From: Klebsiella pneumoniae
GTDB taxonomy: Bacteria; Pseudomonadota; Gammaproteobacteria; Burkholderiales; UBA3065
Reading direction: 5' to 3'
DNA: 64,000 bases
Assembly: GCA_945897555.1 (NCBI GenBank)
Contig: CAMDGF010000001.1
Span: 54,866 to 118,865 of the forward strand
Of the stretch, positions 5,407-63,328 are shown piece by piece. A program made the position numbers and the translations under genes. Every line of letters starts with the position of its first letter. The first letter of the stretch is position 1. The notes beneath the pieces were generated by a model. The model was not told the DNA's origin and searched no databases. It was given only the letters and a program-made list of their open reading frames with translations.

Positions 5407-6956
5407 GCATCACCGTCTACGTCCCCTGCGACTCGAGCGCACTTTCGCTCGGCGCCGAGAAAACAGCCACCGCCATCGCTGCCGAAGCCGCCCGTCGCGG
5501 TGCCGACATCCGCATCGTGCGCAATGGCTCGCGCGGCCTGTTCTGGCTCGAGCCGATGGTCGAGGTCGAGACCCCGGCCGGCCGCGTCGCCTACGGCCCG
5601 GTACAGCCCAAAGACGTGTCGGGCCTCTTCGAAGCCGGCTTCCTCACCGGCGGCAAGCACGCCCTATCGCTGGGCTTGACCGAAGGCATCGCCTACCTGA
5701 AGAACCAAGAGCGTCTCACCGCCGCTCGCGTCGGTTTGGGCGACCCGCTCTGCCTCGACACCTACGCCGCGCACGGCGGCTGGCAGGGCCTCAAGAACGC
5801 AGTGGCCATGTCCGGCGCCGACGTCGTCAAGGAAGTCACCGAATCCGGCCTGCGCGGCCGCGGCGGCGCGGCCTTCCCCACCGGCATCAAGTGGAACACC
5901 GTGCTCAACACCCCGGGCACGCAGAAGTACGTGGTCTGCAACGCCGACGAGGGTGACTCGGGCACCTTCTCCGACCGCATGCTGATGGAAGGCGACCCTT
6001 ACACCCTGGTCGAAGGCATGACCATCGCCGGTGTGGCGGTAGGTGCCACTCAGGGTTACATCTACCTGCGCTCGGAATACCCTCACGCCTTCAAGACGCT
6101 GCAAGAAGCCATCCGCCGCGCCCGCGAGGCCGGCTGGCTGGGCACTGATGTGGCCGGCTCGGGCAAGACCTTCGAGCTCGAGGTGCGGCTGGGTGCCGGC
6201 GCCTACATCTGCGGTGAAGAGACCAGCCTGCTGGAGAGCCTCGAGGGCAAACGCGGCATCGTCCGCTTCAAGCCGCCGCTGCCGGCCATCGAGGGCCTGT
6301 TCGGCAAGCCCACCGTCATCAACAACGTCATCTCCCTGTGCTCGGTGCCGGTGATCCTGGCCAAGGGCGGCAAGCACTATCAGGACTTCGGCATGGGCCG
6401 TTCGCGCGGCACCCTGCCCTTCCAGCTCACCGGCAACATCAAGCATGGCGGCTTGGTCGAGAAAGCGTTCGGCCTCACGCTCAACCAGCTGCTTTACGAC
6501 TACGGCGGCGGTTCTGCCACCGGTCGGCCGATCCGCGCCGTGCAAGTGGGTGGCCCGCTGGGCGCTTACGTCCCCGAGTCGCAGTTCGACCTGCCGCTCG
6601 ACTACGAAGCTTTCAGCAAGGTCAACGCGATGATCGGCCACGGCGGCGTGGTGGTGTTCGACGACGCCGTCGATATGGCGGCGCAGGCGCGTTACGCCAT
6701 GGAGTTCTGCGCCATCGAATCGTGCGGCAAGTGCACGCCTTGCCGCATCGGCTCGACGCGCGGCACCGAGGTGATGGACAAGATCATCCAAGGTATCGAT
6801 GTCGAGGCCAATATCGCGCTGATGCGCTCGCTGTGCGACACCATGCTCAATGGCTCGCTGTGCGCGCTCGGCGGCATGGCGCCCTACCCCGTCCTGTCTG
6901 CGCTCAACCATTTCCCCGAGGACTTCGTGCGTGTGCACGAGGCCGCGGCTGCCTGA
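5403..6956 (+). CDS. fdsB: NAD-dependent formate dehydrogenase beta subunit (NuoF-like, FMN/NAD/4Fe-4S)
   Basis: 517 aa. GLRGRGGAAFPTG and ESCGKCTPCR motifs. ATGA overlap with fdsG. Confidence 0.9.
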   Translation: MSITVYVPCDSSALSLGAEKTATAIAAEAARRGADIRIVRNGSRGLFWLEPMVEVETPAGRVAYGPVQPKDVSGLFEAGFLTGGKHALSLGLTEGIAYLKNQERLTAARVGLGDPLCLDTYAAHGGWQGLKNAVAMSGADVVKEVTESGLRGRGGAAFPTGIKWNTVLNTPGTQKYVVCNADEGDSGTFSDRMLMEGDPYTLVEGMTIAGVAVGATQGYIYLRSEYPHAFKTLQEAIRRAREAGWLGTDVAGSGKTFELEVRLGAGAYICGEETSLLESLEGKRGIVRFKPPLPAIEGLFGKPTVINNVISLCSVPVILAKGGKHYQDFGMGRSRGTLPFQLTGNIKHGGLVEKAFGLTLNQLLYDYGGGSATGRPIRAVQVGGPLGAYVPESQFDLPLDYEAFSKVNAMIGHGGVVVFDDAVDMAAQARYAMEFCAIESCGKCTPCRIGSTRGTEVMDKIIQGIDVEANIALMRSLCDTMLNGSLCALGGMAPYPVLSALNHFPEDFVRVHEAAAA

Positions 6957-6966
6957 GGAGGCTCCC

Positions 6967-9828
6967 ATGTCACTGCCCCGCGATGTCGATCACGGCACCC
7001 CCGCCCGCGAATCCGAAAAACTGGTCACCCTGAGCATCGATGGCGTCGAGGTCTCGGTCCCCGCCGGCACCTCGGTGATGCGTGCCGCGCAGGATGCCGG
7101 CAACGCCATCCCCAAGCTGTGCGCCACCGACAGCCTCGAGCCTTTCGGCTCCTGCCGCCTGTGCCTCGTCGAGATCGAGGGCCGCCGCGGCTACCCCGCC
7201 TCTTGCACCACGCTGGTCGAGCCCGGCATGCAAGTGACCACGCAGTCGCCCAAGCTCGCCGAGATCCGCAAGGGCGTGATGGAGCTCTACATCTCCGACC
7301 ACCCGTTGGACTGCCTGACCTGCTCGGCCAATGGCAACTGCGAGCTGCAGGACATGACCGGCGTGGTCGGCCTGCGCGAGGTGCGCTACGGCTACGAGGG
7401 CAAGAACCACTTCGACGTCCGCTCCGGCACGGTCAAGGATTTCTCCAACCCCTACTTCGCCTATGACCCGAGCAAGTGCATCGTTTGCAACCGCTGCGTG
7501 CGTGCCTGCGAAGAGACCCAAGGCACCTTCGCGCTGACCATCTCCGGCCGCGGCTTCGAGTCGCGCGTGTCGCCGGGCATGGATCAGCCGTTCATGGATT
7601 CCGAGTGCGTAAGCTGCGGCGCCTGCGTGCAGGCCTGCCCGACCGCCACCCTGATGGAGAAGTCGGTGATCGAACACGGTCAAGCCGAGAAAAGCACCAT
7701 CACCACCTGCGCCTACTGCGGTGTGGGGTGCTCGTTCAAGGCCGAGACCAAGGGCAACCAGGTGGTGCGCCTGGTGCCCAACAAGAACGGCCACGCCAAC
7801 CACGGGCACTCGTGCGTCAAGGGCCGCTTCGCTTTCGGCTACGCCACCCACAAGGACCGCATCACCACACCAATGATCCGCCAGAGCATCGACGATCCGT
7901 GGCAGGAGGTGAGCTGGGAGGTGGCGATCAATCACGCTGCCAGTGAGATCAAGCGTATCCAGGGCAAGTATGGCAAGCACTCGGTCGGCGGGATCGTCTC
8001 CAGCCGCTGCACCAACGAGGAAGGCTATCTGGTGCAAAAGCTGGTCCGCGCTGCCTTTGGCAACAACAATGTCGACACCTGCGCGCGCGTCTGCCATTCG
8101 CCGACCGGTTATGGGCTGAAGCAGACCCTCGGCGAGTCGGCTGGCACCCAGACCTTCGATTCGGTGCGGAAGTCCGACGTCATCATGATCATCGGCGCCA
8201 ACCCGTCGGCCGGCCACCCGGTGTTCGCCTCGCAGATGAAGCGCCGCCTGCGCGAGGGGGCCAAGCTGATCGTCATCGACCCGCGCGTCACCGAAAGTGT
8301 CTCCGGCCCGCACTACAAGGCCGACTACCACTTGCAGCTCAAGCCCAGCACCAACGTCGCCATCATCAACTCGCTGGCGCACGTGGTGGCCACCGAAGGC
8401 CTGATCAAGGAAGCCTTCGTCGCCGAGCGTTGCGAGGCCGACTCGTTCCAGGTGTGGCTCGACTTCATCCGCAAGCCCGAAAACTCACCGGAGGCAATGG
8501 AAGCCATCACCGGCGTGCCGGCCGAGCAGGTGCGCGGCGCCGCGCGCCTCTACGCCACCGGCGGTAATGCCGCCATCTATTACGGCCTGGGCGTGACCGA
8601 ACACAGCCAAGGTTCGACCATGGTCATCGGTATCGCCAACCTCGCCATGGCCACCGGCAACATCGGCCGCGAGGGCGTGGGCGTGAACCCGCTGCGCGGC
8701 CAAAACAATGTTCAAGGCTCGTGCGACATGGGCTCGTTCCCGCACGAGCTGCCGGGCTACCGCCACGTGTCGGATGCCGCCACCCGTGCGCTGTTCGGCA
8801 AGGAATGGGGCGTCACCCTGCACGACGAGCCGGGCCTGCGCATCCCGAACATGTTCGAGTCGGCGATGGACGGCACCTTCAAGGCCCTCTACTGCGAAGG
8901 CGAGGACATCGTCCAGTCCGACCCCAACACCCAGCACGTGGAAGCCGCCTTGCGTGCCATGGAGTGCGTCATCGTCCAGGACCTGTTCCTCAACGAGACC
9001 GCCAAGTTCGCGCACGTCTTCCTGCCGGGTTCGAGCTTCCTTGAGAAGAACGGCACGTTCACCAACGCCGAACGCCGCATCTCGCCGGTGCGCAAGGTCA
9101 TGAAGGCACTCGCCGGCTATGAGGACTGGCAGGTCACCCAGATGTTGTCGAACGCGCTGGGCTACCCGATGCACTACAAGCACCCTTCGGAGATCATGGA
9201 CGAGATCGCGCGCCTGACGCCGACCTTCCACGGCGTGAGCTACGCCAAGATCGACCGGCTGGGCAGTATCCAGTGGCCGTGCAACGACGCGCATCCGGAA
9301 GGTACGCCGATCATGCACATCGACGCCTTTGTGCGCGGCAAGGGCCGCTTCATGCCGACCGCCTATGTGCCCACCGACGAGCGCACCAACCGCGATTTCC
9401 CGCTGGTGCTCACCACCGGCCGCATCCTGTCGCAGTACAACGTCGGTGCGCAGACCCGTCGCACCGAGAACTCGCGCTGGCACGAGGAAGACATCCTCGA
9501 CCTGCACCCGGCAGATGCCGAGGAGCGTGGCATCAAGGACGGTGACTGGGTCGGCATCGCCAGCCGTGCCGGCACCACCGTGTTGCGCGCCAACATCAGC
9601 GACCGCCTGCAACCGGGCGTGGTCTACACCACGTTCCACCATCCGTTCTCTGGCGCCAACGTGATCACCACCGAGAACTCGGACTGGGCCACCAATTGCC
9701 CCGAGTACAAGGTCACGGCGGTGCAGGTGACCAAGGTGACCCAGCCCTCCGACTGGCAAGAGCGCTACCGCAAGTTCAGCGAGCAGCAACTCAGCAAGCT
9801 GCCCAAGCGTCAGAAGGAGACCGTGTGA
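6967..9828 (+). CDS. fdsA: NAD-dependent formate dehydrogenase alpha subunit (Mo-bisPGD, Fe-S)
   Basis: The track ORF opens at 6850, but the ATG at 6967 (MSLPRDVDHG..TLSIDGVEV) follows the fdsB stop. It has a 2Fe-2S/4Fe-4S N-terminus plus a molybdopterin oxidoreductase body. Confidence 0.9.
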   Translation: MSLPRDVDHGTPARESEKLVTLSIDGVEVSVPAGTSVMRAAQDAGNAIPKLCATDSLEPFGSCRLCLVEIEGRRGYPASCTTLVEPGMQVTTQSPKLAEIRKGVMELYISDHPLDCLTCSANGNCELQDMTGVVGLREVRYGYEGKNHFDVRSGTVKDFSNPYFAYDPSKCIVCNRCVRACEETQGTFALTISGRGFESRVSPGMDQPFMDSECVSCGACVQACPTATLMEKSVIEHGQAEKSTITTCAYCGVGCSFKAETKGNQVVRLVPNKNGHANHGHSCVKGRFAFGYATHKDRITTPMIRQSIDDPWQEVSWEVAINHAASEIKRIQGKYGKHSVGGIVSSRCTNEEGYLVQKLVRAAFGNNNVDTCARVCHSPTGYGLKQTLGESAGTQTFDSVRKSDVIMIIGANPSAGHPVFASQMKRRLREGAKLIVIDPRVTESVSGPHYKADYHLQLKPSTNVAIINSLAHVVATEGLIKEAFVAERCEADSFQVWLDFIRKPENSPEAMEAITGVPAEQVRGAARLYATGGNAAIYYGLGVTEHSQGSTMVIGIANLAMATGNIGREGVGVNPLRGQNNVQGSCDMGSFPHELPGYRHVSDAATRALFGKEWGVTLHDEPGLRIPNMFESAMDGTFKALYCEGEDIVQSDPNTQHVEAALRAMECVIVQDLFLNETAKFAHVFLPGSSFLEKNGTFTNAERRISPVRKVMKALAGYEDWQVTQMLSNALGYPMHYKHPSEIMDEIARLTPTFHGVSYAKIDRLGSIQWPCNDAHPEGTPIMHIDAFVRGKGRFMPTAYVPTDERTNRDFPLVLTTGRILSQYNVGAQTRRTENSRWHEEDILDLHPADAEERGIKDGDWVGIASRAGTTVLRANISDRLQPGVVYTTFHHPFSGANVITTENSDWATNCPEYKVTAVQVTKVTQPSDWQERYRKFSEQQLSKLPKRQKETV

Positions 9829-20860: not shown

Positions 20861-22900
20861 ATGTCCAGCCCGAGTCCGATGTTGCTCATCACCGTGCTCG
20901 TGGCCGCCATGGTAGCGCTCGTCGTCTTTGTGCTGGCGCAGGGTCGCGGCCGTCGCAAGCGGGCGCGGCAGATCGACGAACTGCGCAGCGCCAATCAACG
21001 GCTGGAAGCACGCGCCCACGAGCTGGCCGAACAGATGACACGGGAGCTGAAAGCGGGCGAGGCTCGCCACCGTCTGATCATGCAAGGCTCCGGGGTGTGC
21101 TTCTGGGACTGGGATGTGAGCCGCGATGAGGTGCACTTCGAGGGTAGCCTCGGCGAAGGCGGCGACCTCGGTTTCGGCAGCGACCGTCTGCCCTCGAACG
21201 TCTGGTTCCGCGCCGTCCACAGCGAGGATCAGGCGCAGATGTGGACGCTGCTCGATGCCCACATGCGCGGCACGACCGCCAGCTTCGAAGCGGAGTACCG
21301 CATCGTCGGCCGTGACCTGCGGCCGCGCTGGGTCATGGCCCGGGCCGTCGTGGTCGATCGCCACGCCGACGGTGCGCCGAGCCGCCTGAGCGGCACCCTG
21401 GTCGACATCGACAAGCGCAAACGGGTCGAGATGGCCCTGGAACAGGAGCGCAGGCTGTTCAACAGCGGCCCGGTCATCGTCATCCGCATCCGGCTCGATG
21501 ACGACCCGGTCTACACCTATTTTTCCAGCAATGTGTACGAGCTCTGGGGTTACCCCCCTGGGTCGCTCGATCACGGCTGCAAGCGCGCCGAGCTGGTCCA
21601 TCCTGACGACCTTGCCCGCACCATGGCGATCTACCGTGAAGTCATCTCCGGTGGTGGCAAGCATCTGCAGACCGAGCTGCGCTACCGGATGCAGGATCAC
21701 AGCTACCGTTGGCATTCGCTGTACGGCAAGGTAATGCGCAGCACCGACCCCACTGAACTGGTCGGCTATCTGATCGACATCGAAGACCGCAAGCAGGTCG
21801 ACCAGGAGATCTCGCAGCAAAAGGCGATGCTCGAGGAACTGGTGGTCAACCTGCGTGACTCCGAGCATGAGCGCACCTTGCTGCACCAGACCGGCGACAT
21901 GCTCAACTCGGCCAAGAACATCGACGAGGCCTGCGCCATCGTGCAGCGCACCGCGCAGGTCATGTTCCCCGGCTGGAGCGGTGCCATCAGCACCAGCGAT
22001 GCCGCCGGCAATCTGACCGTACGCGACCGCTGGGGCGGCCACATGGTCGAACGCATGCTGCCCACCTTCGGCAATGAACAATGCTGGGCTCTGCGTCGCG
22101 GCCGCAGCCACACCTTCCTCGATGCGCGTCGGAGCGTGCCCTGCCAACACCTCGAGTGCGCCGATCACCCACACCCCACGCTGTGTGTGCCCATGGTCGC
22201 CGACGGCAAGGTGGTGGGCGCGCTGCACCTGATGGCCGATGCGCATGCAGTGGACGGCGAGGTGATGCGCACCATGGAGCGCGCCGAGCGACTGGGTGAG
22301 ACGCTTAAGCTGTCACTCTCCAACCTCGGGCTGCGCGCCACCCTGCAGGAACAAGCGGTGCGCGACGGCCTCACCGGCCTCTACAACCGCCGCCTGCTGG
22401 CCGAGCGCCTGCCGGCCGAGATACAGCGTTGCCTGCGCACCGACCAGATGTTGGTGCTGGCGATGATGGACATCGACCACTTCAAGCGCTTCAACGACCA
22501 GTTCGGCCATGAGGCTGGCGACCTGGTGCTGCACGCTGTGGCGCGCTGCATCGGCGAGAGTGTGCGCGGCTACGACCTCGCCTGTCGCTACGGCGGCGAG
22601 GAATTCTGCGTGGTGCTGCCAGGTTGCTCCGTCGACGCGGCCATGGCGCGACTGCAATCCATGCGCCAGATGTCGAGTTCGCTGACGCTGCGACACGGCG
22701 GCCAGCCGCTGCCGCGCGTCACGCTATCGGGCGGCCTGGCGCTGGCACGCGAAGAATCGCCCGAGCAGCTGATCGCCCGCGCCGATGCCGCGCTCTATGC
22801 AGCCAAGGCAGCTGGGCGCGACCGCGTCATCGTCGCCGACGGCGACCGCGCCAGCAGCCCAGCGTCGCTGCGGCTGGTCAACGAGGTTGCCGCCCGCTAG
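20861..22900 (+). CDS. membrane-anchored PAS/GAF sensor diguanylate cyclase
   Basis: 679 aa with an N-terminal TM helix and PAS-like and GAF-like regions. The C-terminal GGDEF domain has RGYD (I-site) followed by GGEEF. Confidence 0.85.
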   Translation: MSSPSPMLLITVLVAAMVALVVFVLAQGRGRRKRARQIDELRSANQRLEARAHELAEQMTRELKAGEARHRLIMQGSGVCFWDWDVSRDEVHFEGSLGEGGDLGFGSDRLPSNVWFRAVHSEDQAQMWTLLDAHMRGTTASFEAEYRIVGRDLRPRWVMARAVVVDRHADGAPSRLSGTLVDIDKRKRVEMALEQERRLFNSGPVIVIRIRLDDDPVYTYFSSNVYELWGYPPGSLDHGCKRAELVHPDDLARTMAIYREVISGGGKHLQTELRYRMQDHSYRWHSLYGKVMRSTDPTELVGYLIDIEDRKQVDQEISQQKAMLEELVVNLRDSEHERTLLHQTGDMLNSAKNIDEACAIVQRTAQVMFPGWSGAISTSDAAGNLTVRDRWGGHMVERMLPTFGNEQCWALRRGRSHTFLDARRSVPCQHLECADHPHPTLCVPMVADGKVVGALHLMADAHAVDGEVMRTMERAERLGETLKLSLSNLGLRATLQEQAVRDGLTGLYNRRLLAERLPAEIQRCLRTDQMLVLAMMDIDHFKRFNDQFGHEAGDLVLHAVARCIGESVRGYDLACRYGGEEFCVVLPGCSVDAAMARLQSMRQMSSSLTLRHGGQPLPRVTLSGGLALAREESPEQLIARADAALYAAKAAGRDRVIVADGDRASSPASLRLVNEVAAR

Positions 22901-40973: not shown

Positions 40974-43310
40974 TTACTTGTCGGTCATCACCCAGACACC
41001 GTCCCACTCACCCTCCGGCGGGGTGGCTTTAAGCAGCTCGCAGCGCTCGATGTAGGTCTTGCTGAGCTTGTCCTTGGGGTTGTACGAAAGCGCTTTCTCG
41101 AAAGCGGCAACGGCATCGTCCCAACGGCCTGCCCGGTAGCGCGCAAGGCCTTCGGTGAAGTTGCCGAGCACGTCCATCATGTTGGGGAAGCTGTCGGGTG
41201 TGTGGTAGTCCAGCACCTCGTAGATGCTCACCGGCTGGGTCTTGCCCTTCACCACCACCAGATCGACCTCGCGCATGCGGTAGATGCCGCGCAGCTTGGC
41301 CTGCGTGAACTCGGAGATGAGGATCTTGGCCGAATACTGCTTGCAAGCGGATTCGAGACGAGCCGCAAGGTTGACGCCATCCCCGATGACGGTGAAGTCC
41401 ATGCGCTTCTTGGAGCCGATGTTGCCGCTCACCACCACATCGGTGTTGAGGCCGATGCCGATGTGGACGGGCAGCTTGCCCTCGGACTCGCGCACGACGT
41501 TCCACTCGTTGAGCTCACGGATCATCCACACCGAGGCGCGCACGGCCCGATCCTCGTCGTCGTCGTGCGCCAGCGGGATGCCAAAGCCCGCCATGATGGC
41601 GTCGCCGATGAACTTGTCGAGCATGCCACCCTCGCGGGTGATGCAGTCGACCATGATCTCAAAGTACTCGTTGAGCAGCGTCACCGTGGCCTGCGGCCCG
41701 AGCGCCTCGGTGAGCGTGGTGAAGCCGCGGATGTCGGAGAAGAGCAAGGTGGCGACCACGCTCTGCCCGCCCATCGCCTCGCCACCCTTGGCCATCAGCT
41801 GATCGGCGATGGCCGGGTCGACGTAGCGCGACATGGTCGACTTCATCCGCTTCTCGGACGAGATGTCTTCAAACATGACCATGGTGCCGAGGTGCCCGCC
41901 TTCGACGTTGGTCAGAGGCAGGATCGTTGTGTTCACCGAGACGTGCTCACCCTCGATGGTCATTTCAGCGTCCATGGTGATGTCTGGCTCGGATTCCGCG
42001 GTGAGCTTGCGCGCCTTCTCCATCACCCACGCATTGGCCTCGGTAAAGATCTCCTCGGCCTTGCGGCCGATGATGTCTTCGACACGCTGCTTGAGGATCT
42101 TCGATCCGGCGCTGTTGCAGGTGACCACCTTCTCGGTCTCATCCAGCGTGATCACGCCGTTGCTCATCGACTCGAGCATCGACTCGTTGTAGTTCTTCAT
42201 GTTCTGCACGTCGGCGAACAAGCTGGCGTTCTCCAGCGAGATCGCGATCTGCGCAGTGAATGCCTTGAGTCGGGATTCATCTTCGCCAGTGAAGACACCG
42301 TTCTTCTTGTTCAGCACCTGGGTGACGCCGATCACCTTGCCCTTCTGGTTGATGATCGGCACACAGAGGATGCTGCGGGTGAAGAACCCCGACTTCTTGT
42401 CGAATGCCGGGTTGAAGCGCAGGTCGGCGTAGGCGTGCGGGATGTTGATGGTCTTGCCGCTGCTGAACACCGCTCCGGCGATGCCCGCGGTGTTGGGCAG
42501 GCGGATCTGCATCGAGCCGAGCCCCTGCCCGACCTGCGACCACAAGGTCTGCGTCTTTTCGTCGTTGAGGAACAGCGTGCTGCGCTCGGCGTTGAGCATG
42601 CGCGTCGCCTCGGTCATCACCTTGTTGAGCAGCGAGTCGATCTTGATGTCGGAGGTGAGGTCGCTCACCACCTCGAGGAACTCGAGTTCCTGCTCACGGA
42701 TGCGTTTCATCCGCTCGACCAGCGCCATGCTCTCGAGGCCGAGCGCGCCCTGCGTGGTGATGGCCGCGAACAGTTCCTGATCCTGCTTGGTGAACTTGCC
42801 GATCTTCTTGTTCAGCGCCTGCGCAACACCGATGAGCTCGCCCTTGGCGTTGCGGATGGGCACACAGAGGATGCTTTGCGTCTTGTAGCCGGTGCGCTGA
42901 TCGACCGAGCTGTCAAAGCGCTTGTCCTTGTAGGCGTCGTGGATGATCGCCGGCTCGCCGTTATGGTAGACCCAGCCGGCGACACCACGGTCGTTCATCA
43001 GGCGGATCTCCTGCGTCAGGTTGCCCTGCGCGACCCGGCTGTAAAGCTCGTTGGTGGCCGGGTCGTTGAGGAACAGCGTGCTGCGATCGGCCTCCAGCTG
43101 TTCGGTGCTGACCTCGACCAGCAAGTGCAGGATCTGGTCGAGCGAGTCCATCGCCGCGACCTTCTCGGAGATCGACAGCAGCAGCCGCAGCAGGCTCTCC
43201 TGCCAGGTCTTGCCAACCATCGCCACCGAATAGGCGGACGAGTGTGCCGACTTGGCGGCAGGGGTCCGACTACGCGTCTTGGGGGTGCTTGGGGGCTTGG
43301 TCGTGGTCAT
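40974..43310 (-). CDS. GAF-GAF-PAS class III adenylate/guanylate cyclase with a C-terminal TPR-like tail
   Basis: 778 aa. Cyclase core FSDIRGFTTLTE...DKFIGDAIMAGFG...GDGVNLAARLES. Confidence 0.85.
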   Translation of the reverse strand: MTTTKPPSTPKTRSRTPAAKSAHSSAYSVAMVGKTWQESLLRLLLSISEKVAAMDSLDQILHLLVEVSTEQLEADRSTLFLNDPATNELYSRVAQGNLTQEIRLMNDRGVAGWVYHNGEPAIIHDAYKDKRFDSSVDQRTGYKTQSILCVPIRNAKGELIGVAQALNKKIGKFTKQDQELFAAITTQGALGLESMALVERMKRIREQELEFLEVVSDLTSDIKIDSLLNKVMTEATRMLNAERSTLFLNDEKTQTLWSQVGQGLGSMQIRLPNTAGIAGAVFSSGKTINIPHAYADLRFNPAFDKKSGFFTRSILCVPIINQKGKVIGVTQVLNKKNGVFTGEDESRLKAFTAQIAISLENASLFADVQNMKNYNESMLESMSNGVITLDETEKVVTCNSAGSKILKQRVEDIIGRKAEEIFTEANAWVMEKARKLTAESEPDITMDAEMTIEGEHVSVNTTILPLTNVEGGHLGTMVMFEDISSEKRMKSTMSRYVDPAIADQLMAKGGEAMGGQSVVATLLFSDIRGFTTLTEALGPQATVTLLNEYFEIMVDCITREGGMLDKFIGDAIMAGFGIPLAHDDDEDRAVRASVWMIRELNEWNVVRESEGKLPVHIGIGLNTDVVVSGNIGSKKRMDFTVIGDGVNLAARLESACKQYSAKILISEFTQAKLRGIYRMREVDLVVVKGKTQPVSIYEVLDYHTPDSFPNMMDVLGNFTEGLARYRAGRWDDAVAAFEKALSYNPKDKLSKTYIERCELLKATPPEGEWDGVWVMTDK

Positions 43311-56169: not shown

Positions 56170-57021
56170 GTGAACATCACGTTGCCACCCTCGTCGCCCG
56201 AGGGCCCTCCAACCCGACCCAGCGCCGATGTCGAGGGCCAAAGCCTCGGCGCGGCCGAGGAAGACGATCTCTTCACTGCAAAAGCACTCGACAAAGCCTT
56301 GCATGAGGGCCAACTGAGCCTGCTCTATCAGCCGATTTTTCGCCTGCAAGACCGCCGGCCGGTGAGCGTAGAGGCCCTGCTGCGCTGGCGTAGCCCCAGG
56401 GGCGCAGACCGCCTTCCAGACACCTTCATCCCCTGCGCAGAACGCGGCGGCTTGATCGACGCCATCGGCCTCTTCGTGCTGAAAAGCGCCTGCGACCAGA
56501 TCGTCGTATGGCGGCAACAGCAGTCGCGCGTGCTGCCGGTCTCGATCAATGTGTCTGCACACCAGTTCCGTACACCCGACTTTGCCAGCGACTTTGCCAG
56601 CATCATCGCGACGTCGGGCGTCGACCCGCACGCGCTGCAGCTCGAGATCACCGAATCGGCGCTGGTCGATGACCCGGTGACCGCCTCGGCGCGGCTCGAC
56701 GGACTGCGGGCACTGGGCGTGGGCATCGCGATCGACGACTTTGGCGTAGGTTACTCATCGCTCTCGCGGCTGCGGCACTACCACATCGACACACTCAAAC
56801 TCGATCACAGCTTTGTGCATGACGTGGCCGATGACTTTGTGGCCAACGAAGTGGCCGCCACCATCATCCGCCTTGCGCACCGGCTCGGCGTATCAGTGGT
56901 GGCCGAAGGTGTAGAGACCGAGGCGCAATACACCGCTCTGCTTGCGATGGGCTGCGACGCCGGCCAAGGGTTCCTGCTGTCGCGGCCGCTCGCTGCCGAC
57001 GACATCCCGGGTCTGGCCTGA
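56170..57021 (+). CDS. stand-alone EAL-domain c-di-GMP phosphodiesterase
   Basis: YQPIF, EALLRW, QLEITES, DDFGVGYSS, KLDHSF, EGVET and QGFLLSRP motifs are all present. The GTG start is uncertain. Confidence 0.75.
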   Translation: MNITLPPSSPEGPPTRPSADVEGQSLGAAEEDDLFTAKALDKALHEGQLSLLYQPIFRLQDRRPVSVEALLRWRSPRGADRLPDTFIPCAERGGLIDAIGLFVLKSACDQIVVWRQQQSRVLPVSINVSAHQFRTPDFASDFASIIATSGVDPHALQLEITESALVDDPVTASARLDGLRALGVGIAIDDFGVGYSSLSRLRHYHIDTLKLDHSFVHDVADDFVANEVAATIIRLAHRLGVSVVAEGVETEAQYTALLAMGCDAGQGFLLSRPLAADDIPGLA

Positions 57022-57035
57022 CCGCGCTCGGTCGG

Positions 57036-59006
57036 TCAGGCCGTGGCCGGCACAGCCTCCTGCAGGCGACGCACGCTGGCCTCGATACCGGGGGCATCGA
57101 GGCCCTCCATGGCCAGCAAGGTGGCGTGGTCGCCATGATCGATGAAACGGTCGGGCAGGCCAAGGTGGTGGATCGGCACCATGGGGATGCGGCTGCCGAG
57201 CGCCACCAGACCTTCGGCGCAGGCCGAGCCAGCCCCGCCCTGCACCACATGCTCCTCGACCGTGACCAGCAGGTCGTGGTGATGGGCCGCCCACGCCAGG
57301 GTGTCGAGGTCAAGCGGCTTGACGAAGCGCATGTTGATCACCGTGGCGTCGAGCGCCTCAGCCGCCTTGAGCGCTGGCGAGACCATCGACCCGAAGGCGA
57401 GGATGGCGACACGGGCGCCTGCTGCCGCGACGCCTGTGCGCAACACCTCCGCCTTGCCGACCGGGAGCGGCTCGAGCGTGTCGGTGGCGTCGATGCCGGC
57501 GCCCGCGCCACGTGGATAGCGCACTGCGCTCGGCCCGTCGTAGGCGAGCCCTGTACTGAGCATGCGCCGGCACTCGAGCTCGTCCTTGGGCGCCATCACC
57601 AACATGTGCGGGATGCAACGCAGGAAGCTGTAGTCGTAGATGCCGGCATGGGTGGCGCCATCGGCGCCGACCAACCCGGCACGATCGAGCGCGAACATCA
57701 CCGGCAGCTTCTGCAAAGCGACATCGTGGATGAGCTGGTCGTAGGCGCGCTGCAGGAAGGTGCTGTAGATCGCAACCACGGGCTTCAGGCCTTCGCAGGC
57801 GATGCCAGCGGCAAACGTCACCGCGTGCTGCTCGGCGATGCCAACGTCGTAGTAGCGATCAGGGAAGCGCTCGGCGTACTCGACCATGCCGGAGCCCTCG
57901 CGCATGGCTGGCGTGATGGCCACCACGCGCGGATCGGCACTCGCAGCGTCGCACAACCAACGGCCGAACACCTGCGAATAGGTCGCCTTGGCCGGCGCGG
58001 CGGGCTTGATGCCAGCCGCCGGATCGAACTTGCCAGGGCCGTGGTAGAGGATGGGATCGGCCTCGGCACGGTCGTAGCCAGCCCCCTTGCGCGTCACCAC
58101 ATGGAGGAACTGCGGGCCCTTGAGCCGGCGCAGGTTGATCAGCGTCGGCACCAGTGCATCGAGGTCGTGTCCGTCGATCGGGCCGACATAGTTGAAACCG
58201 AACTCCTCGAACAGGGTGCCGGGGGTGACAAAACCCTTGGCAGTCTCTTCGACGCGGTGCGCGAGTTCGCGCATCGATGGCAGGCCGCTGAGCAGTTGTT
58301 TGCCGAGCTCCTTGGTGCTGGTGTAGAGCCGGCTCGAGAGCAGCCGGGTGAGGTACTTGGAGAGCGCACCCACCGGCGGACTGATCGACATCTCGTTGTC
58401 GTTGAGGATCACCAGCAGGTCGATGTCGCGCTCGATGCCGGCATTGTTGAGCGCCTCGAAAGCCAGCCCGGCACTCATGGCGCCATCGCCGATCACGGCG
58501 ACGTGCCGACGCCGCCCCGAGCCCTCATGCTCACCCTTCTGCCGCGAAGCGATGGCCATGCCCAATGCAGCCGAGATGCTGGTCGATGAGTGGGCGGTGC
58601 CAAAGTGGTCGTACTCACTCTCACAACGCCGCGGAAAGCCCGACAGCCCTTTGAGCTGACGCAGGCTGCCCATGCGCTCGCGGCGACCGGTGAGGATCTT
58701 GTGCGGGTAGCTCTGATGCCCGACATCCCAGATCAGGCGGTCATACGGCAGGTTGAAGACGTGGTGGATGGCCACCGTGAGTTCCACAGTGCCCAGATTC
58801 GATGACAGATGCCCCCCGGTGCTCGCCACCGAGCGCAGCAGGAACTCGCGCAGTTCGGCAGACAGCTGCTTGAGCTGCGCACGACTCAGCGCGCGCACCT
58901 GCGCCGGCGCGTTGACCTTGTCCAGGACCGATTCCAGATCATCCATGGGCCCGAATTGTGCGCCATCCAGGCGAGTGAATGTTGCGGCGCGATCCATCGT
59001 GTTCAT
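57036..59006 (-). CDS. dxs: 1-deoxy-D-xylulose-5-phosphate synthase
   Basis: 656 aa. [12 protein letters not shown] and IGDGAMSAG (ThDP) motifs. The start overlaps the puhE stop (ATGA). Confidence 0.92.
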
Positions 59007-59803
59007 GTCACCTCCATACCCAGGCGATCGCGCTCACGACGGTCACGCCGCGAGCCCATGCCCCAATGCCAAAGCCGCTCGAAGGGAATCGGCAGCACCA
59101 TGAACCAATGCTCGAGAATGGCAAGGCTCAGCAACATGGCTGCCAGCGATGCGGCTACCGGCTGAAAGTCGCCGGCACGCTGGTTCCAGGCGAACTCCCA
59201 GCCTGCCATCGCGGCCGCCGTGGCAAGCGTCACCACCACCGGGAACAGCGGGTTGATCGGCTTGCGCTGAAAGTAGGTGGGCAGGTAGCGCAGATGCAGC
59301 GGCAAGAAGGTCTCCGAAAGATTGCGCACGCCGAGGAAGACATTGAGCTTGGCGCTCTGGCGCATCACCCAGAAGATCAGGTAGGTGCACAGACCGACAC
59401 GGTTACTGCCGCCGGCTGTGGCGAGGAATACACCCAGGCCGAGCACCAGCAGGGCGATCTCGTGGTGCAGCACCACCTGCAGGGCAAAGCCCGCCCGCTG
59501 CCAGCCGCGCGAGCCGATCGGCAGGTCGATGCGCCGCGGCCCGGTGACATACCCGAGCAGAAAAGCGATCTCCTGCCATGCCCAGATGAGGAGAGCGCAG
59601 CTGAACGCACAATAGGCACCGGCCTCGGTGGCCATATCGCGCGATGCAGCCAAGCCCCAGAAGGCAGCCACCGCGAGCCAGCTGGCGAGCGTGAACGTGA
59701 GGCGGTAGGTGCTGCGTGGCAAACGGTTGAGCCAGATGATGACGCCGGTGCCGATCCACCATGCGAACAGGGTGAACACGGCGGGAAGCAAGAGGGTGCT
59801 CAT
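59003..59803 (-). CDS. puhE: putative photosynthetic complex assembly protein PuhE
   Basis: Start at [21 protein letters not shown] 266-aa multi-TM protein located after acsF, as in other photosynthesis gene clusters. Confidence 0.8.
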
Positions 59804-59846
59804 CGCCCGGGTATCCTCGCCGTCGGTGCGGCCACGCGACAGACCG

Positions 59847-60932
59847 TCACCACACCGGCTCGAGGCGCGGGTCGGCGGGCAGCTCGCGCGAGCGCACCGG
59901 AAGGAAGTACATGCGGACGAAGGTCGCGGCGGCACCCAGCGCAAGACCGGCGCGGCGCACTTGGTTCCACGGTCCACCCACCCTGCGCGCCTCGTCCATC
60001 GCCTCGGCGATCAGGCGCATCTTCTCCAGCCCGGCGCGGAAGCGTGCGTCTTCGAAGTTGAGCGTATCCGGGAACACCTGTTGTGAGATCTCCCGGGTGA
60101 CGCGGAACACCTCCATGTCGTATTCGGTCGGATCGAGCCCGAGCGACTTGTGGAACACCGGCCGCGCGTGGTCACGCACATACATGGTGGCGAACACCGC
60201 CAGGGTAAAGAAGCGGATCCAGAGGCGGTTGAGGCCACGGGTCAGGCTCGGGTCCGCGCGCATCAGCAGGGCGAACGCCTCGCCATGCCGGAACTCATCG
60301 TTGCACCACTCGCGGAACCACCGGAAGATCGGGTGGAAGCACAGCTCAGGGTGCCGTTCGATCTTTCGGTAGATGGTGATGTAACGCGCGTAGCCGATCT
60401 TCTCCGAAAGGTAGGTCGCGTAGAAGATGTACTTGGGCTTGAAGTAGGTGTACTTCTTGGCCTTGACCAGAAAGCCCAGATCGACCCCGATACCGAAATC
60501 CTTGAGCCACTGGTTGATGAAACCGGCGTGGCGCGATTCGTCGCGCGCCATGTAACCGAACAGGTCCTTCATGTCGGGGTTCTTGACCCGCCGACGGATC
60601 TCGGCGTAGAGCACACAGCCAGAGAACTCCGCCGTGACCGAACTGATCATGAAATCAACGAATTCCTGATAGAGCTCGTCGGGCAAGTGCGAGTAGTCCT
60701 GCCCGAGCATGTCGACCGGCCGCTCGAAGTGGCCGTTGTTGGGGTCGTCCCTGAACTCGGCCATCAGCGCATCCCACTGCTCGCGGATCGAACCGATGTC
60801 GATGCGGTCCATGGCGTCGAAATCGGTGGTGTAGAAACGCGGATCGAGGATGGTGTTCTTCTGCGCCTGGCGCGTCGAATCGTTGATGCTCTCAGGCGTC
60901 TCGAGCTGGCGGGTCTCGGTCATGGCGTTCAT
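59847..60932 (-). CDS. acsF: aerobic Mg-protoporphyrin IX monomethyl ester oxidative cyclase
   Basis: Start at MNAMTETRQ (361 aa). Two di-iron E..E/D-x-x-H motifs (DESRH, DEFRH). Confidence 0.92.
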
Positions 60933-61303
60933 GGCTGCTGGCCTCCGTTGGGCACGCTGGACACGGCGTTGGATGGTCGTGCGGCCTTGGGCCGCGGATA
61001 GTTGCGTGAGGTTGAGAAGCGGCGCTCGGAGAAGCTCACCTCGTAGAGCAGGTCGAGTTCGAAACGGGCGAGGGCAAAGGTCTTGAGGCGCTGCCACCAC
61101 GATGCACGCGAAACCGTGGCACGACGTTCAACCGCGTAACGCTCACCCCAGTTGATGCGGGTGGGCGGGTTATGCACCAGCACCTCGTCGCCAGGGCCGA
61201 TCTCGACCCCTTTGAGGATGACGTGCGCGTAGCAGTCGTCGGCGGTATGCGCCAACTCGACACGACATGGCACTGTGGATACGCGAGGGTCACGGTCGCT
61301 CAT
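60929..61303 (-). CDS. small conserved-position ORF between puhC and acsF (124 aa), function unknown
   Basis: ATGA overlaps at both ends (with the puhC stop and the acsF start). GC-rich third codon positions. Confidence 0.65.
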
Positions 61304-61869
61304 CGCGCGGCCTTTGCAACGTGCGCCCCAGGCTGCGGCTCGACCAGCATCCGCGCGAACGCGCCGGCATTGGTGTGGCCGAAGGCTGTGAGTTCGACGC
61401 GCTGCCCGGTGGCCAGGTCGGTGAGCACGAGCAGACCGGCGTCGAGCGAGAGCTGGAAGGGCTCGGCCACACCCTTGCCAAGCCGCCGACGCTCACGCGC
61501 CATGCCACGCAGGATGCCGCGGATGAAACCGGCCTCACCGACCACGCGATACACCTCGATGCCGCTGTCGGCATCGAGCACACGGACCGATTTGTCCCCG
61601 GCGTCGAGAAAGCGCAACTTGCGCTGGCCGACGGTCTTGAGCACCGGTGGATCTACGGTGGCGACGGTCATCGGCACGCTTGCAGAAGCCAGCGTCGCCC
61701 CCCCAGCACTGTGAAGCTGCAGACCCAGCCAGAAACCGAGCGCGGGAAGGACGACGACCGCTGCCACCAGCCAGAGTGGCATCACCCTGACGATCGGATA
61801 GCGCGCGGCGAGGCGCGAACGCCAGCCACCGTTCGCGTCCACGCCCGCAGCAGCGGCCAGGCGCGTCAT
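61300..61869 (-). CDS. puhC: photosynthetic complex assembly protein PuhC
   Basis: ATG at 61869 overlaps the puhB stop. One TM helix, then LRFLDAGDKSVRVLDADSG..GFIRGILRGMARERR, typical of PuhC. An alternative ATG lies at 61782. Confidence 0.7.
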   Translation of the reverse strand: MTRLAAAAGVDANGGWRSRLAARYPIVRVMPLWLVAAVVVLPALGFWLGLQLHSAGGATLASASVPMTVATVDPPVLKTVGQRKLRFLDAGDKSVRVLDADSGIEVYRVVGEAGFIRGILRGMARERRRLGKGVAEPFQLSLDAGLLVLTDLATGQRVELTAFGHTNAGAFARMLVEPQPGAHVAKAAR

Positions 61870-62564
61870 GCCGGTTCTGCCCCGGCCAGAGCGTCGCCGG
61901 TGCCGCGCTTTGGCCTGACCGTCGCGGCCGCTCGGGCCGGCGCGGCTGCTGAGCGTTGCTGCACGACCGACCACGCTTGCCCGAGCAGCGTCGCCACCCG
62001 GCTGGCGTCTGGCAGACAGCGCAGCGCCGGCTCGGGTTGGGTGATGCGCCACGGGCGCGCATGTGGCCACAGGTGCGGGTAGGCGATGCGCTGGCCATCG
62101 GTCAGACGCAGACAGATGTCCCCGGCACCCTGCGCCTGCTGGCGCAGATCGGCTGCGGCCACCTGGCGCAAAGGGATGTTGTAAGTGATACCCAGCACCA
62201 TGCCGATGCGCATCACCACTCGCTTGTCAGTGAGCGTGTACAGCGTGGTGCGCGAGACCGCGACGGCCAGCCCGAAGAGCATGGCCAGCCCGATCAGCGG
62301 CAAGGGCGCGATCTTGAGTGTGGCGATGAGTGCCTCTATCGGGGTCGCGCCATCATGCCAATCCGCGATCAGCTTCCATGCCAGCAGAAGGCCGAAGTAG
62401 GCTGCAACGGCACGGACATGGAAGACTTCGCGCGCCACCAGCCCGATGTCGGGCGCACCCTGCCACAACAGGGTCTCACCGGCCGGAAGTCGCTCTGGCA
62501 GCCCGGGCTCGGGCTCCCAGCCATGCTCGGGGCCGGAGAAATGCTTGTGGTCGAGCCCGCTCAA
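61866..62564 (-). CDS. puhB: photosynthetic complex assembly protein PuhB
   Basis: LPAGETLLWQGAPD motif and two TM helices. The proposed TTG start at 62564 overlaps the puhA stop (TTGA). Start uncertain. Confidence 0.7.
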   Translation of the reverse strand: MSGLDHKHFSGPEHGWEPEPGLPERLPAGETLLWQGAPDIGLVAREVFHVRAVAAYFGLLLAWKLIADWHDGATPIEALIATLKIAPLPLIGLAMLFGLAVAVSRTTLYTLTDKRVVMRIGMVLGITYNIPLRQVAAADLRQQAQGAGDICLRLTDGQRIAYPHLWPHARPWRITQPEPALRCLPDASRVATLLGQAWSVVQQRSAAAPARAAATVRPKRGTGDALAGAEPA

Positions 62565-63328
62565 ATCAGCGGCTCCGCACGGCCCGGCTCGGCGTAGAGC
62601 AGACCACCGCCGAGGTAACCGAAGATCTTTTCCTCTTCGAGCCAAGTGACCTGATCCGGGCTGGCAGTGCGGGGGATGCCGGCGATCTGGCCGCCGAGCA
62701 CAGCACGCACCGTGACACGGTCGCGCTCGACCCGGCACAGGGTCATCGGCACCAGCACGCGATGGCCACCGGCATCGATCTCGACGTAGCGGAACAGGTG
62801 CTCCGAGCGATCGACCCAGAGGTCGGTCACCTTGCCACCCACCACGCCGTCGGCGCCCACCACGTCAAAGCCACGCGGGTCGGTCTCGCCATGATCGATG
62901 GCAAAGCCCTCTGGCTCGGCGACGCGCAAGGGCACGATGCGGACCGCGCCCTCGTAGGTGGTGTCAGGGCGATCGGCACGGGCTGTCCAGGCGCCAGGGC
63001 CGATACCGTCGTACATCGGGTTACCGGTCGGCTCGATCGGTGCGCCGGCAAAGCCTGCGATCGGCTCTGCTGCCGGTGCCGGCTGCTCCCAGTCACGCAT
63101 GTGCGGCGCGAGGTACTCGCTGCCATCCTGCATGACATAGCGCTTGGGCTTGGGCATGGCGATGATGCCGGGGTCTCGGCGACCATTGCGCAGGCCCGAA
63201 TCGAGGGGAAAGCCTTCGCGCTTGCTCTCGTAGATCAGGTAATAGCAGAGGCCAAAAAAGAACACCCAGAACATGTAGATGGCCAGTTGGGCCACATCGA
63301 AGTAGCCGAGGATCGCTCCGTTTCCCAT
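62561..63328 (-). CDS. puhA: photosynthetic reaction centre H subunit
   Basis: 255 aa (FDVAQLAIYMFWVFFFGLCYYLIYESKREGFPL). Confidence 0.92.
   Translation of the reverse strand: MGNGAILGYFDVAQLAIYMFWVFFFGLCYYLIYESKREGFPLDSGLRNGRRDPGIIAMPKPKRYVMQDGSEYLAPHMRDWEQPAPAAEPIAGFAGAPIEPTGNPMYDGIGPGAWTARADRPDTTYEGAVRIVPLRVAEPEGFAIDHGETDPRGFDVVGADGVVGGKVTDLWVDRSEHLFRYVEIDAGGHRVLVPMTLCRVERDRVTVRAVLGGQIAGIPRTASPDQVTWLEEEKIFGYLGGGLLYAEPGRAEPLI

Follow-up and report, generated by a model that had tools for sequence, protein, structure and literature searches.

All (bacterio)chlorophylls owe their fifth ring to the O2-dependent MgPME cyclase, an enzyme whose subunit composition has long been a puzzle. Reviews divide these enzymes into three classes, namely AcsF alone in anoxygenic phototrophs except Alphaproteobacteria, AcsF with BciE in Alphaproteobacteria, and AcsF with Ycf54 in oxygenic organisms (PMC7319587, PMC13297055, PMC7242693). 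BciE is an auxiliary subunit required by the alphaproteobacterial AcsF (PMC7319587; PMC13297055), and the cyclase role of the Rba. sphaeroides protein, Rsp_6110, is credited in a passage of PMC7319587 to Chen, Canniffe & Hunter 2017. In reviews from the Hunter laboratory and in later ones, Betaproteobacteria are placed in the AcsF-only class on the basis of Rubrivivax gelatinosus (PMC7319587, PMC13297055, PMC7242693, PMC5787379). Here we analyse a 64,000-nucleotide (nt) stretch of a Burkholderiales contig (CAMDGF010000001.1, positions 54,866 to 118,865; hereafter the window), in which an open reading frame (ORF) of 124 amino acids (aa), ORF124, lies between puhC and acsF. An original prediction, made from the letters of the window, had located this ORF without stating its strand and had left three options for it: it might be related to BciE, be an accessory subunit of another kind, or be an assembly factor of the puh type. 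The ORF is present on the minus strand, the cyclase classes on which the prediction drew (no partner, BciE or Ycf54) agree with the reviews cited above, and the first of the three options is the one favoured by our results. We consider it probable, at roughly 0.7, that ORF124 encodes a BciE orthologue that is co-translated with AcsF and that would bind and support it, judging from sequence comparison and gene order.

The operon common to such clusters has been named puhA-puhBC-bciE-acsF-puhE (PMC10576062), the bciE slot having been labelled 'hyp' in older papers (PMC3176799; PMC6052148). BciE is encoded by a small ORF for a soluble protein that follows puhC and immediately precedes acsF, sharing a 4-nt stop/start overlap with the latter, and ORF124 is alike in all these respects. 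Rsp_6110 itself presumably lies between RSP_0293 (puhC) and RSP_0294 (acsF). In the plasmid-borne clusters of the Rhodobacterales Roseobacter litoralis, Roseinatronobacter and Sulfitobacter guttiformis, a 98-aa 'hypothetical protein' is encoded between puhC and acsF. The R. litoralis ORF of this slot shares 43% identity with ORF124 (E 1e-17), and that of Roseinatronobacter, a genus in the same family as Rba. sphaeroides (Paracoccaceae), shares 41% in the alignment. On this sequence similarity, ORF124 is homologous to the ~98-aa Rhodobacterales ORF in the slot that the literature assigns to bciE, and because these homologues come from the order and family of Rba. sphaeroides and may stand as a proxy for Rsp_6110, membership of ORF124 in the BciE family is the assignment we propose. 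The conserved residues P12, C13, H27, G38, D39, H44, E82, L86, E88, S90, F91 and S92 are shared by ORF124 and the Rhodobacterales bciE-slot ORFs. ORF124 differs from the latter in length, 124 versus ~98 aa, through a basic, disordered extension bearing an RFSxSRxYPRP motif, and in its host, a member of the Burkholderiales and hence of a class counted among the AcsF-only organisms, whereas BciE is described as alphaproteobacterial. The distribution limited to Alphaproteobacteria that reviews state for BciE does not hold for the ORF124 family; since that statement is a taxonomic generalisation and not a molecular criterion, the betaproteobacterial distribution leaves BciE membership possible.

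The window has a GC content of 66% and contains numerous spurious ORFs as long as ORF124, so that length and GC at third codon positions (GC3) alone prove nothing. The GC content at the three codon positions of ORF124 is 0.65/0.52/0.74; the third positions are therefore GC-rich, as the original prediction held, but remain below those of the neighbouring genes (GC3 0.79–0.87). That ORF124 is more than a chance reading frame follows from its homologues (50, with identity down to 45%), from low ratios of nonsynonymous to synonymous substitution rates (Nei-Gojobori dN/dS of 0.146 and 0.208 versus the two closest loci, L001 and L002, respectively), and from the gene calls on 22 public contigs that carry the exact protein. 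Among these is NCBI MCF8191354.1, 'hypothetical protein [Burkholderiales bacterium]', from a Burkholderiales metagenome-assembled genome (MAG), which bears out the predicted betaproteobacterial origin of the cluster, and the contigs with the identical protein show the same gene calls as the window. Consequently, ORF124 is a real gene under purifying selection.

The family to which ORF124 belongs is large. A profile search of 1.84 billion representatives returned 317 clusters (50% identity) at an E value of 0.001 or better, nearly all of them 90–130 aa long, a word-indexed search returned at least 6851 clusters at 90% identity, and a scan with one genome per species gave 586 loci. An alignment of 71 members from two proteobacterial classes contains 8 invariant columns and another 14 with conservation of at least 90%. 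These data bear on the reading of ORF124 as a leader ORF that delivers ribosomes to acsF while its peptide is functionless. The ATGA overlap, the Shine-Dalgarno sequence of acsF inside ORF124, and the failure to find a known domain or fold would all suit such a leader, which we nevertheless regard as hardly credible in view of the dN/dS of 0.15–0.21, the conserved columns, the thousands of sequence clusters of constant length and a core modelled at a predicted local distance difference test score (pLDDT) of 81–92.

Gene context was surveyed in the best 80 of the 586 genome loci, and junctions were counted in 88 loci. In the former, the homologue lies directly upstream of acsF wherever the DNA extends that far, and puhC directly upstream of the homologue in all but two. 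The pattern is puhA-(puhB)-puhC-X-acsF-puhE, X being the homologue, with four exceptions in which the contig ends or puhC was undetected. About 35 of these 80 loci are betaproteobacterial and the rest alphaproteobacterial. The cultured betaproteobacterial carriers include Polynucleobacter hallstattensis, P. kasalickyi and P. sp. UK-Gri1-W3, to which one complete Burkholderiales chromosome can be added; a Methylibium MAG is arranged likewise, the homologue being flanked on both sides by ATGA overlaps. Alphaproteobacterial carriers are found in Rhodopseudomonas, Methylobacterium, Methylorubrum, Hyphomicrobium and Bradyrhizobium. Cereibacter and Rubrivivax do not appear among the best 120 matches listed in two profile searches, nor does Cereibacter among the matches listed in the genome scan or Rubrivivax among the named ones of the 50 homologues; names are sparse in such lists, so that their absence is barely indicated.

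The junctions bear on the question of which neighbour the homologue is linked to. In 80 of the 88 loci, there is a 4-nt overlap between the stop of the homologue and a start codon (ATG, GTG or TTG) in frame with acsF, in Alpha- and Betaproteobacteria alike. In this count the acsF start was taken as the candidate nearest to the stop of the homologue, which still requires a TGA stop, the correct frame offset and an open frame; we roughly estimate that such a coincidence would arise by chance at a rate of ~15%. The spacing between puhC and the homologue is less uniform, being an overlap of 1 or 4 nt (−1 or −4) in 71 of the 88 loci, with small positive gaps occurring too, so the coupling of the homologue to acsF is tighter than that to puhC. 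Distances between pairs of loci, taken for the homologue and for AcsF, are correlated (r = 0.85), and AcsF clusters follow taxonomy; because of this, the homologue appears to have descended together with acsF in both classes and not to have been transferred recently.

The most discriminating evidence for the link with acsF comes from two rearranged clusters. One of them, L091, reads bchL-bchM-X-acsF-lhaA-puhA-puhB, where X adjoins acsF and no puhC stands beside X; the other, L095, reads bchG-pucC-bchP-tspO-X-acsF-?-pufBA, where X again adjoins acsF, the 4-nt overlap is retained, and no puh gene is detectable within 10 kb. The genetic linkage of the homologue is therefore to acsF rather than to puhC or the other puh genes. 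This makes it very improbable that ORF124 is a Puh-type assembly factor of the reaction centre or of light-harvesting complex 1 with no cyclase role, an explanation that would draw on its place in a puhA-puhB-puhC-...-puhE operon, on its 4-nt overlap with puhC, and on the puhC-X overlap in 71 of the 88 loci. ORF124 does have the operon and translational coupling in common with PuhB, PuhC and PuhE, small proteins whose function is poorly known. However, these match separate NCBIfam models and ORF124 matches none, ORF124 lacks a membrane segment, its family goes with acsF and not with the puh genes in rearranged clusters, and the coupling to acsF is the tighter of the two. Moreover, published genetics assign the Rba. 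sphaeroides gene of this slot to the cyclase (PMC7319587, PMC13297055).

Several observations on these loci may be added. In L095, a 348-aa ORF (6568–7614) follows acsF in the usual puhE slot and precedes pufBA; no Pfam match is recorded for it, and tblastn gives none to PuhE. The member in L091 (2515–2844; P0050, GCA_966195215.1) is divergent and lacks Cys13, having VPATIDLE in place of VPCxVE, and its hydrophobic N-terminal segment (LLIATLVLLAVWFLY) may be a membrane anchor. Apparent fusions of the homologue with AcsF (P0147, P0098) or with PuhC (P0181) were considered as Rosetta-stone evidence and rejected as products of poor-quality sequence: P0147 lies on the long-read contig L090, where other genes are fragmented by frameshifts, while P0098 and P0181 run into out-of-frame sequence. 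In L090 and L094, both long-read contigs from ENA, frameshifts produced false fusion proteins that protein collections keep as separate cluster representatives. Annotations of the acsF start are discordant as well (L081, 3761–3767; L085, 3372–3381). The RefSeq start of R. litoralis acsF is placed 2 nt past the upstream stop despite an overlapping in-frame start, and the acsF of the window is called as 358 aa in one NCBI MAG versus 361 aa on other contigs. Translational coupling is thus under-reported by automatic annotation.

The protein encoded by ORF124 has no transmembrane segment, as its maximum Kyte-Doolittle hydropathy over 19-residue windows is 0.71. Residues 1–95 are near neutral, and the last 29 residues are strongly basic, with an isoelectric point (pI) of 11.7. 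An AlphaFold2 model of the monomer, built from the 71-sequence alignment, comprises strands at residues 8–19, 24–30, 40–43 and 54–65 and a helix at 69–79. Conserved within this core are C13, E16, H27, G38, D39, H44, G53, A62, T63, R66 and A67. The confidence of the model falls to a pLDDT of 56–58 over blocks 81–100, which include an ELxxLYEVSFS motif. Residues E88 and F91 of this motif do not vary in the family, and conservation reaches at least 90% at E82, L86, S90 and S92. Because this segment is highly conserved and yet disordered in the monomer model, we propose it as a candidate for partner binding.

The original prediction had seen no recognisable motif in ORF124, and this holds for the curated libraries: ORF124 matches nothing in Pfam or NCBIfam at E values up to 1, while strong matches to their own models are obtained for its neighbours. 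A sequence search of the PDB with the family profile gave nothing significant (top match to major vault protein, E 0.15), and a PDB sequence search with AcsF likewise found nothing. A permissive Pfam scan of the 71 family members produced sub-threshold CPxCG_zf and scattered OB-fold matches only, which we judged not to be meaningful. The predicted feature that did not survive is a Cys pair: Cys13 is at least 90% conserved in the family, but Cys24 is found in close relatives only and is F, L or H elsewhere. A zinc-finger identity was rejected too, given a single conserved Cys (C13) in place of a paired Cys/His metal-binding motif of the CPxCG type, and CPxCG_zf matches that stay below threshold in 17 of the 71 members (best E 0.0064) and are absent from ORF124. 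Many Rhodobacterales members (e.g. P0213, P0218, P0241) carry the JGI name 'uncharacterized Zn finger protein', which is probably annotation noise propagated from such sub-threshold matches.

Ycf54, the partner of the cyanobacterial and plant cyclase CycI/CHL27, resembles BciE in role, being a small soluble partner of a di-iron cyclase of the AcsF type. The Pfam scan, which covers families from all life, detected no sequence relationship between Ycf54 and ORF124, and the likeness is thus one of functional analogy only. To our knowledge, the gene for Ycf54 does not precede that for the cyclase with an overlap of the two.

The part of ORF124 that sets the betaproteobacterial members apart is the C-terminal extension. 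The number of residues after the SFS motif has a median of 30 in 36 betaproteobacterial loci and is exactly 5 in 47 alphaproteobacterial loci; the motif R-F-[ST]-x-[ST]-[RK]-x-Y-P-R-P occurs in 26 of the former and in none of the latter. This motif has persisted in Polynucleobacter, whose GC content is low, as well as in the high-GC genome of the window, which points to constraint at the level of the protein. The tail noted in the original prediction is thus real, is basic, and is predicted to be disordered, but it is not featureless, since it opens with this motif.

From these results, a mechanism may be proposed. ORF124 would be read from a puhABC-X-acsF message, and a ribosome that has completed it would re-initiate at the overlapping acsF ATG, aided by the GGAGG sequence in its 3' end; if so, ORF124 and AcsF would be made together in a fixed ratio. 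The product, with a putative architecture in which a ~95-residue core comprises four beta strands plus a helix and is extended by the lineage-specific basic tail, may then bind AcsF and support its stability or activity, by analogy with the genetic role of BciE in Rba. sphaeroides. The invariant ELxxLYEVSFS segment, disordered in the model of the monomer, would be the predicted contact with AcsF.

Certain points weigh against this assignment. AcsF of Rubrivivax gelatinosus is active alone in E. coli and Rba. capsulatus (PMC13297055, PMC7242693, PMC5787379), and since it works alone, a betaproteobacterial homologue may be dispensable. The comparison was made with Rhodobacterales ORFs, which serve as a proxy for Rsp_6110. 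The distance correlation, which was computed for the homologue and AcsF only, would be shown by any co-operonic pair. A Foldseek search of the PDB with the ORF124 model found no fold relative (top match at E 0.64 only), neither a cofactor site nor a physical interaction was found for ORF124, and all family members in the databases are named 'hypothetical' or 'uncharacterized Zn finger protein', none of them BciE.

The first of these points leads to a different explanation, namely that the BciE homologue is dispensable for catalysis by the betaproteobacterial AcsF and is kept as a conditional helper, for instance to stabilise AcsF, load it with iron or target it to the membrane when O2 or iron is at particular levels, the tail adding a function that Alphaproteobacteria do not have. 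It accords with the placement of Betaproteobacteria in the AcsF-only class and the activity of the Rubrivivax enzyme in heterologous hosts, with the betaproteobacterial members forming a subfamily of their own, in which the RFSxSRxYPRP extension is conserved, and with the AcsF of the window being 65–71% identical to distant betaproteobacterial AcsFs and only 59–67% identical to alphaproteobacterial ones. We nonetheless consider it unlikely, as beta- and alphaproteobacterial loci show purifying selection and the 4-nt coupling to acsF, which is nearly universal, to the same degree, and the core residues conserved in Alphaproteobacteria are kept in ORF124. An AcsF-binding BciE orthologue therefore remains the explanation we prefer.

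The features of the locus are collected in Table 1. ORF124 starts with the ATG at 61303 and stops with the TGA at 60929–60931, and the gene order on the minus strand is lhaA, puhA, puhB, puhC, ORF124, acsF, puhE, dxs. The predicted neighbours puhC and acsF were confirmed by their models, as were PuhE, PuhB and PuhA, and both of the predicted ATGA overlaps can be seen in the junction sequences. A chain of 4-nt overlaps runs along the operon (59003–63328), joining puhA/puhB, puhB/puhC, puhC/ORF124, ORF124/acsF and puhE/dxs; its sole gap is the 43 nt between acsF and puhE. The puhA/puhB overlap is TTGA (62561–62564), which implies a TTG start for puhB, while those of puhB/puhC (61866–61869) and puhE/dxs (59003–59006) are ATGA. 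The translationally coupled dxs marks the edge of the photosynthesis cluster, a position occupied by hemA in Rhodobacterales loci. Past dxs, the window contains housekeeping genes (formate dehydrogenase-like, mfd, nadE, groEL, dnaX). An EAL-type ORF (56170–57021, plus strand), assigned by reading its translation only, adjoins the cluster edge, and farther off lie a PAS-GGDEF protein and a GAF-GAF-PAS adenylate/guanylate cyclase (regions 20861–22900, plus strand, and 40974–43310, minus strand).

Table 1 Features of the ORF124 locus, in coordinates of the window.
Feature	Coordinates	Strand	Evidence and remarks
puhA	62561–63328	minus	NCBIfam/Pfam match
puhB	61866–62564	minus	NCBIfam/Pfam match
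puhC, 189 aa, upstream of ORF124	61300–61869	minus	TIGR03054, 2e-29; called as a gene on identical contigs
Overlap ATGA, puhC stop (TGA)/ORF124 start (ATG)	61300–61303	minus	junction reads ...GCGCGATGAGCGAC
ORF124 (putative BciE-family gene)	60929–61303	minus	124 aa, 14.1 kDa, pI 9.4, soluble
ORF124 confidently modelled core, residues 8–80	61064–61282	minus	AlphaFold2, pLDDT 81–92 over blocks 11–80
ELxxLYEVSFS motif, ORF124 residues 82–92	61028–61060	minus	candidate partner-binding segment
Basic C-terminal extension, ORF124 residues 95–124	60932–61021	minus	betaproteobacterial members only; pI 11.7; pLDDT ~50–65
RFSxSRxYPRP motif, opens the C-terminal extension	60989–61021	minus	family alignment
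GGAGG Shine-Dalgarno sequence of acsF, within the ORF124 3' end	60942–60946	minus	9 nt before the acsF ATG; junction CAACGGAGGCCAGCAGCCATGA
Overlap ATGA, ORF124 stop (TGA)/acsF start (ATG)	60929–60932	minus	junction reads ...CAGCAGCCATGAACGCC
acsF	59847–60932	minus	TIGR02029, 4e-140; Rubrerythrin, 8e-35
puhE, 266 aa, 43 nt downstream of acsF	59003–59803	minus	TIGR03055, 5e-77; DUF3623
dxs	57036–59006	minus	beyond puhE

ORF124 is ordinary in kind, as a member of a known but uncurated family, and carries a lineage-specific tail. The family exposes an annotation gap, for its thousands of sequence clusters are without a Pfam or NCBIfam model. Our finding is mildly at odds with the classification of cyclases by taxon: because many Betaproteobacteria carry an acsF-coupled bciE-family gene under selection, their gene content departs from the three-class scheme. 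We tentatively suggest, at somewhat less than even odds, that BciE-dependent cyclases extend beyond Alphaproteobacteria, such that most freshwater phototrophs of the Burkholderiales (Polynucleobacter and the lineage of the window) may use a long-tailed BciE as an obligatory subunit of AcsF, with Rubrivivax as the exception and with the tail adding, for example, docking to the membrane or to a partner. If true, the three-class scheme based on taxa would need to be redrawn.

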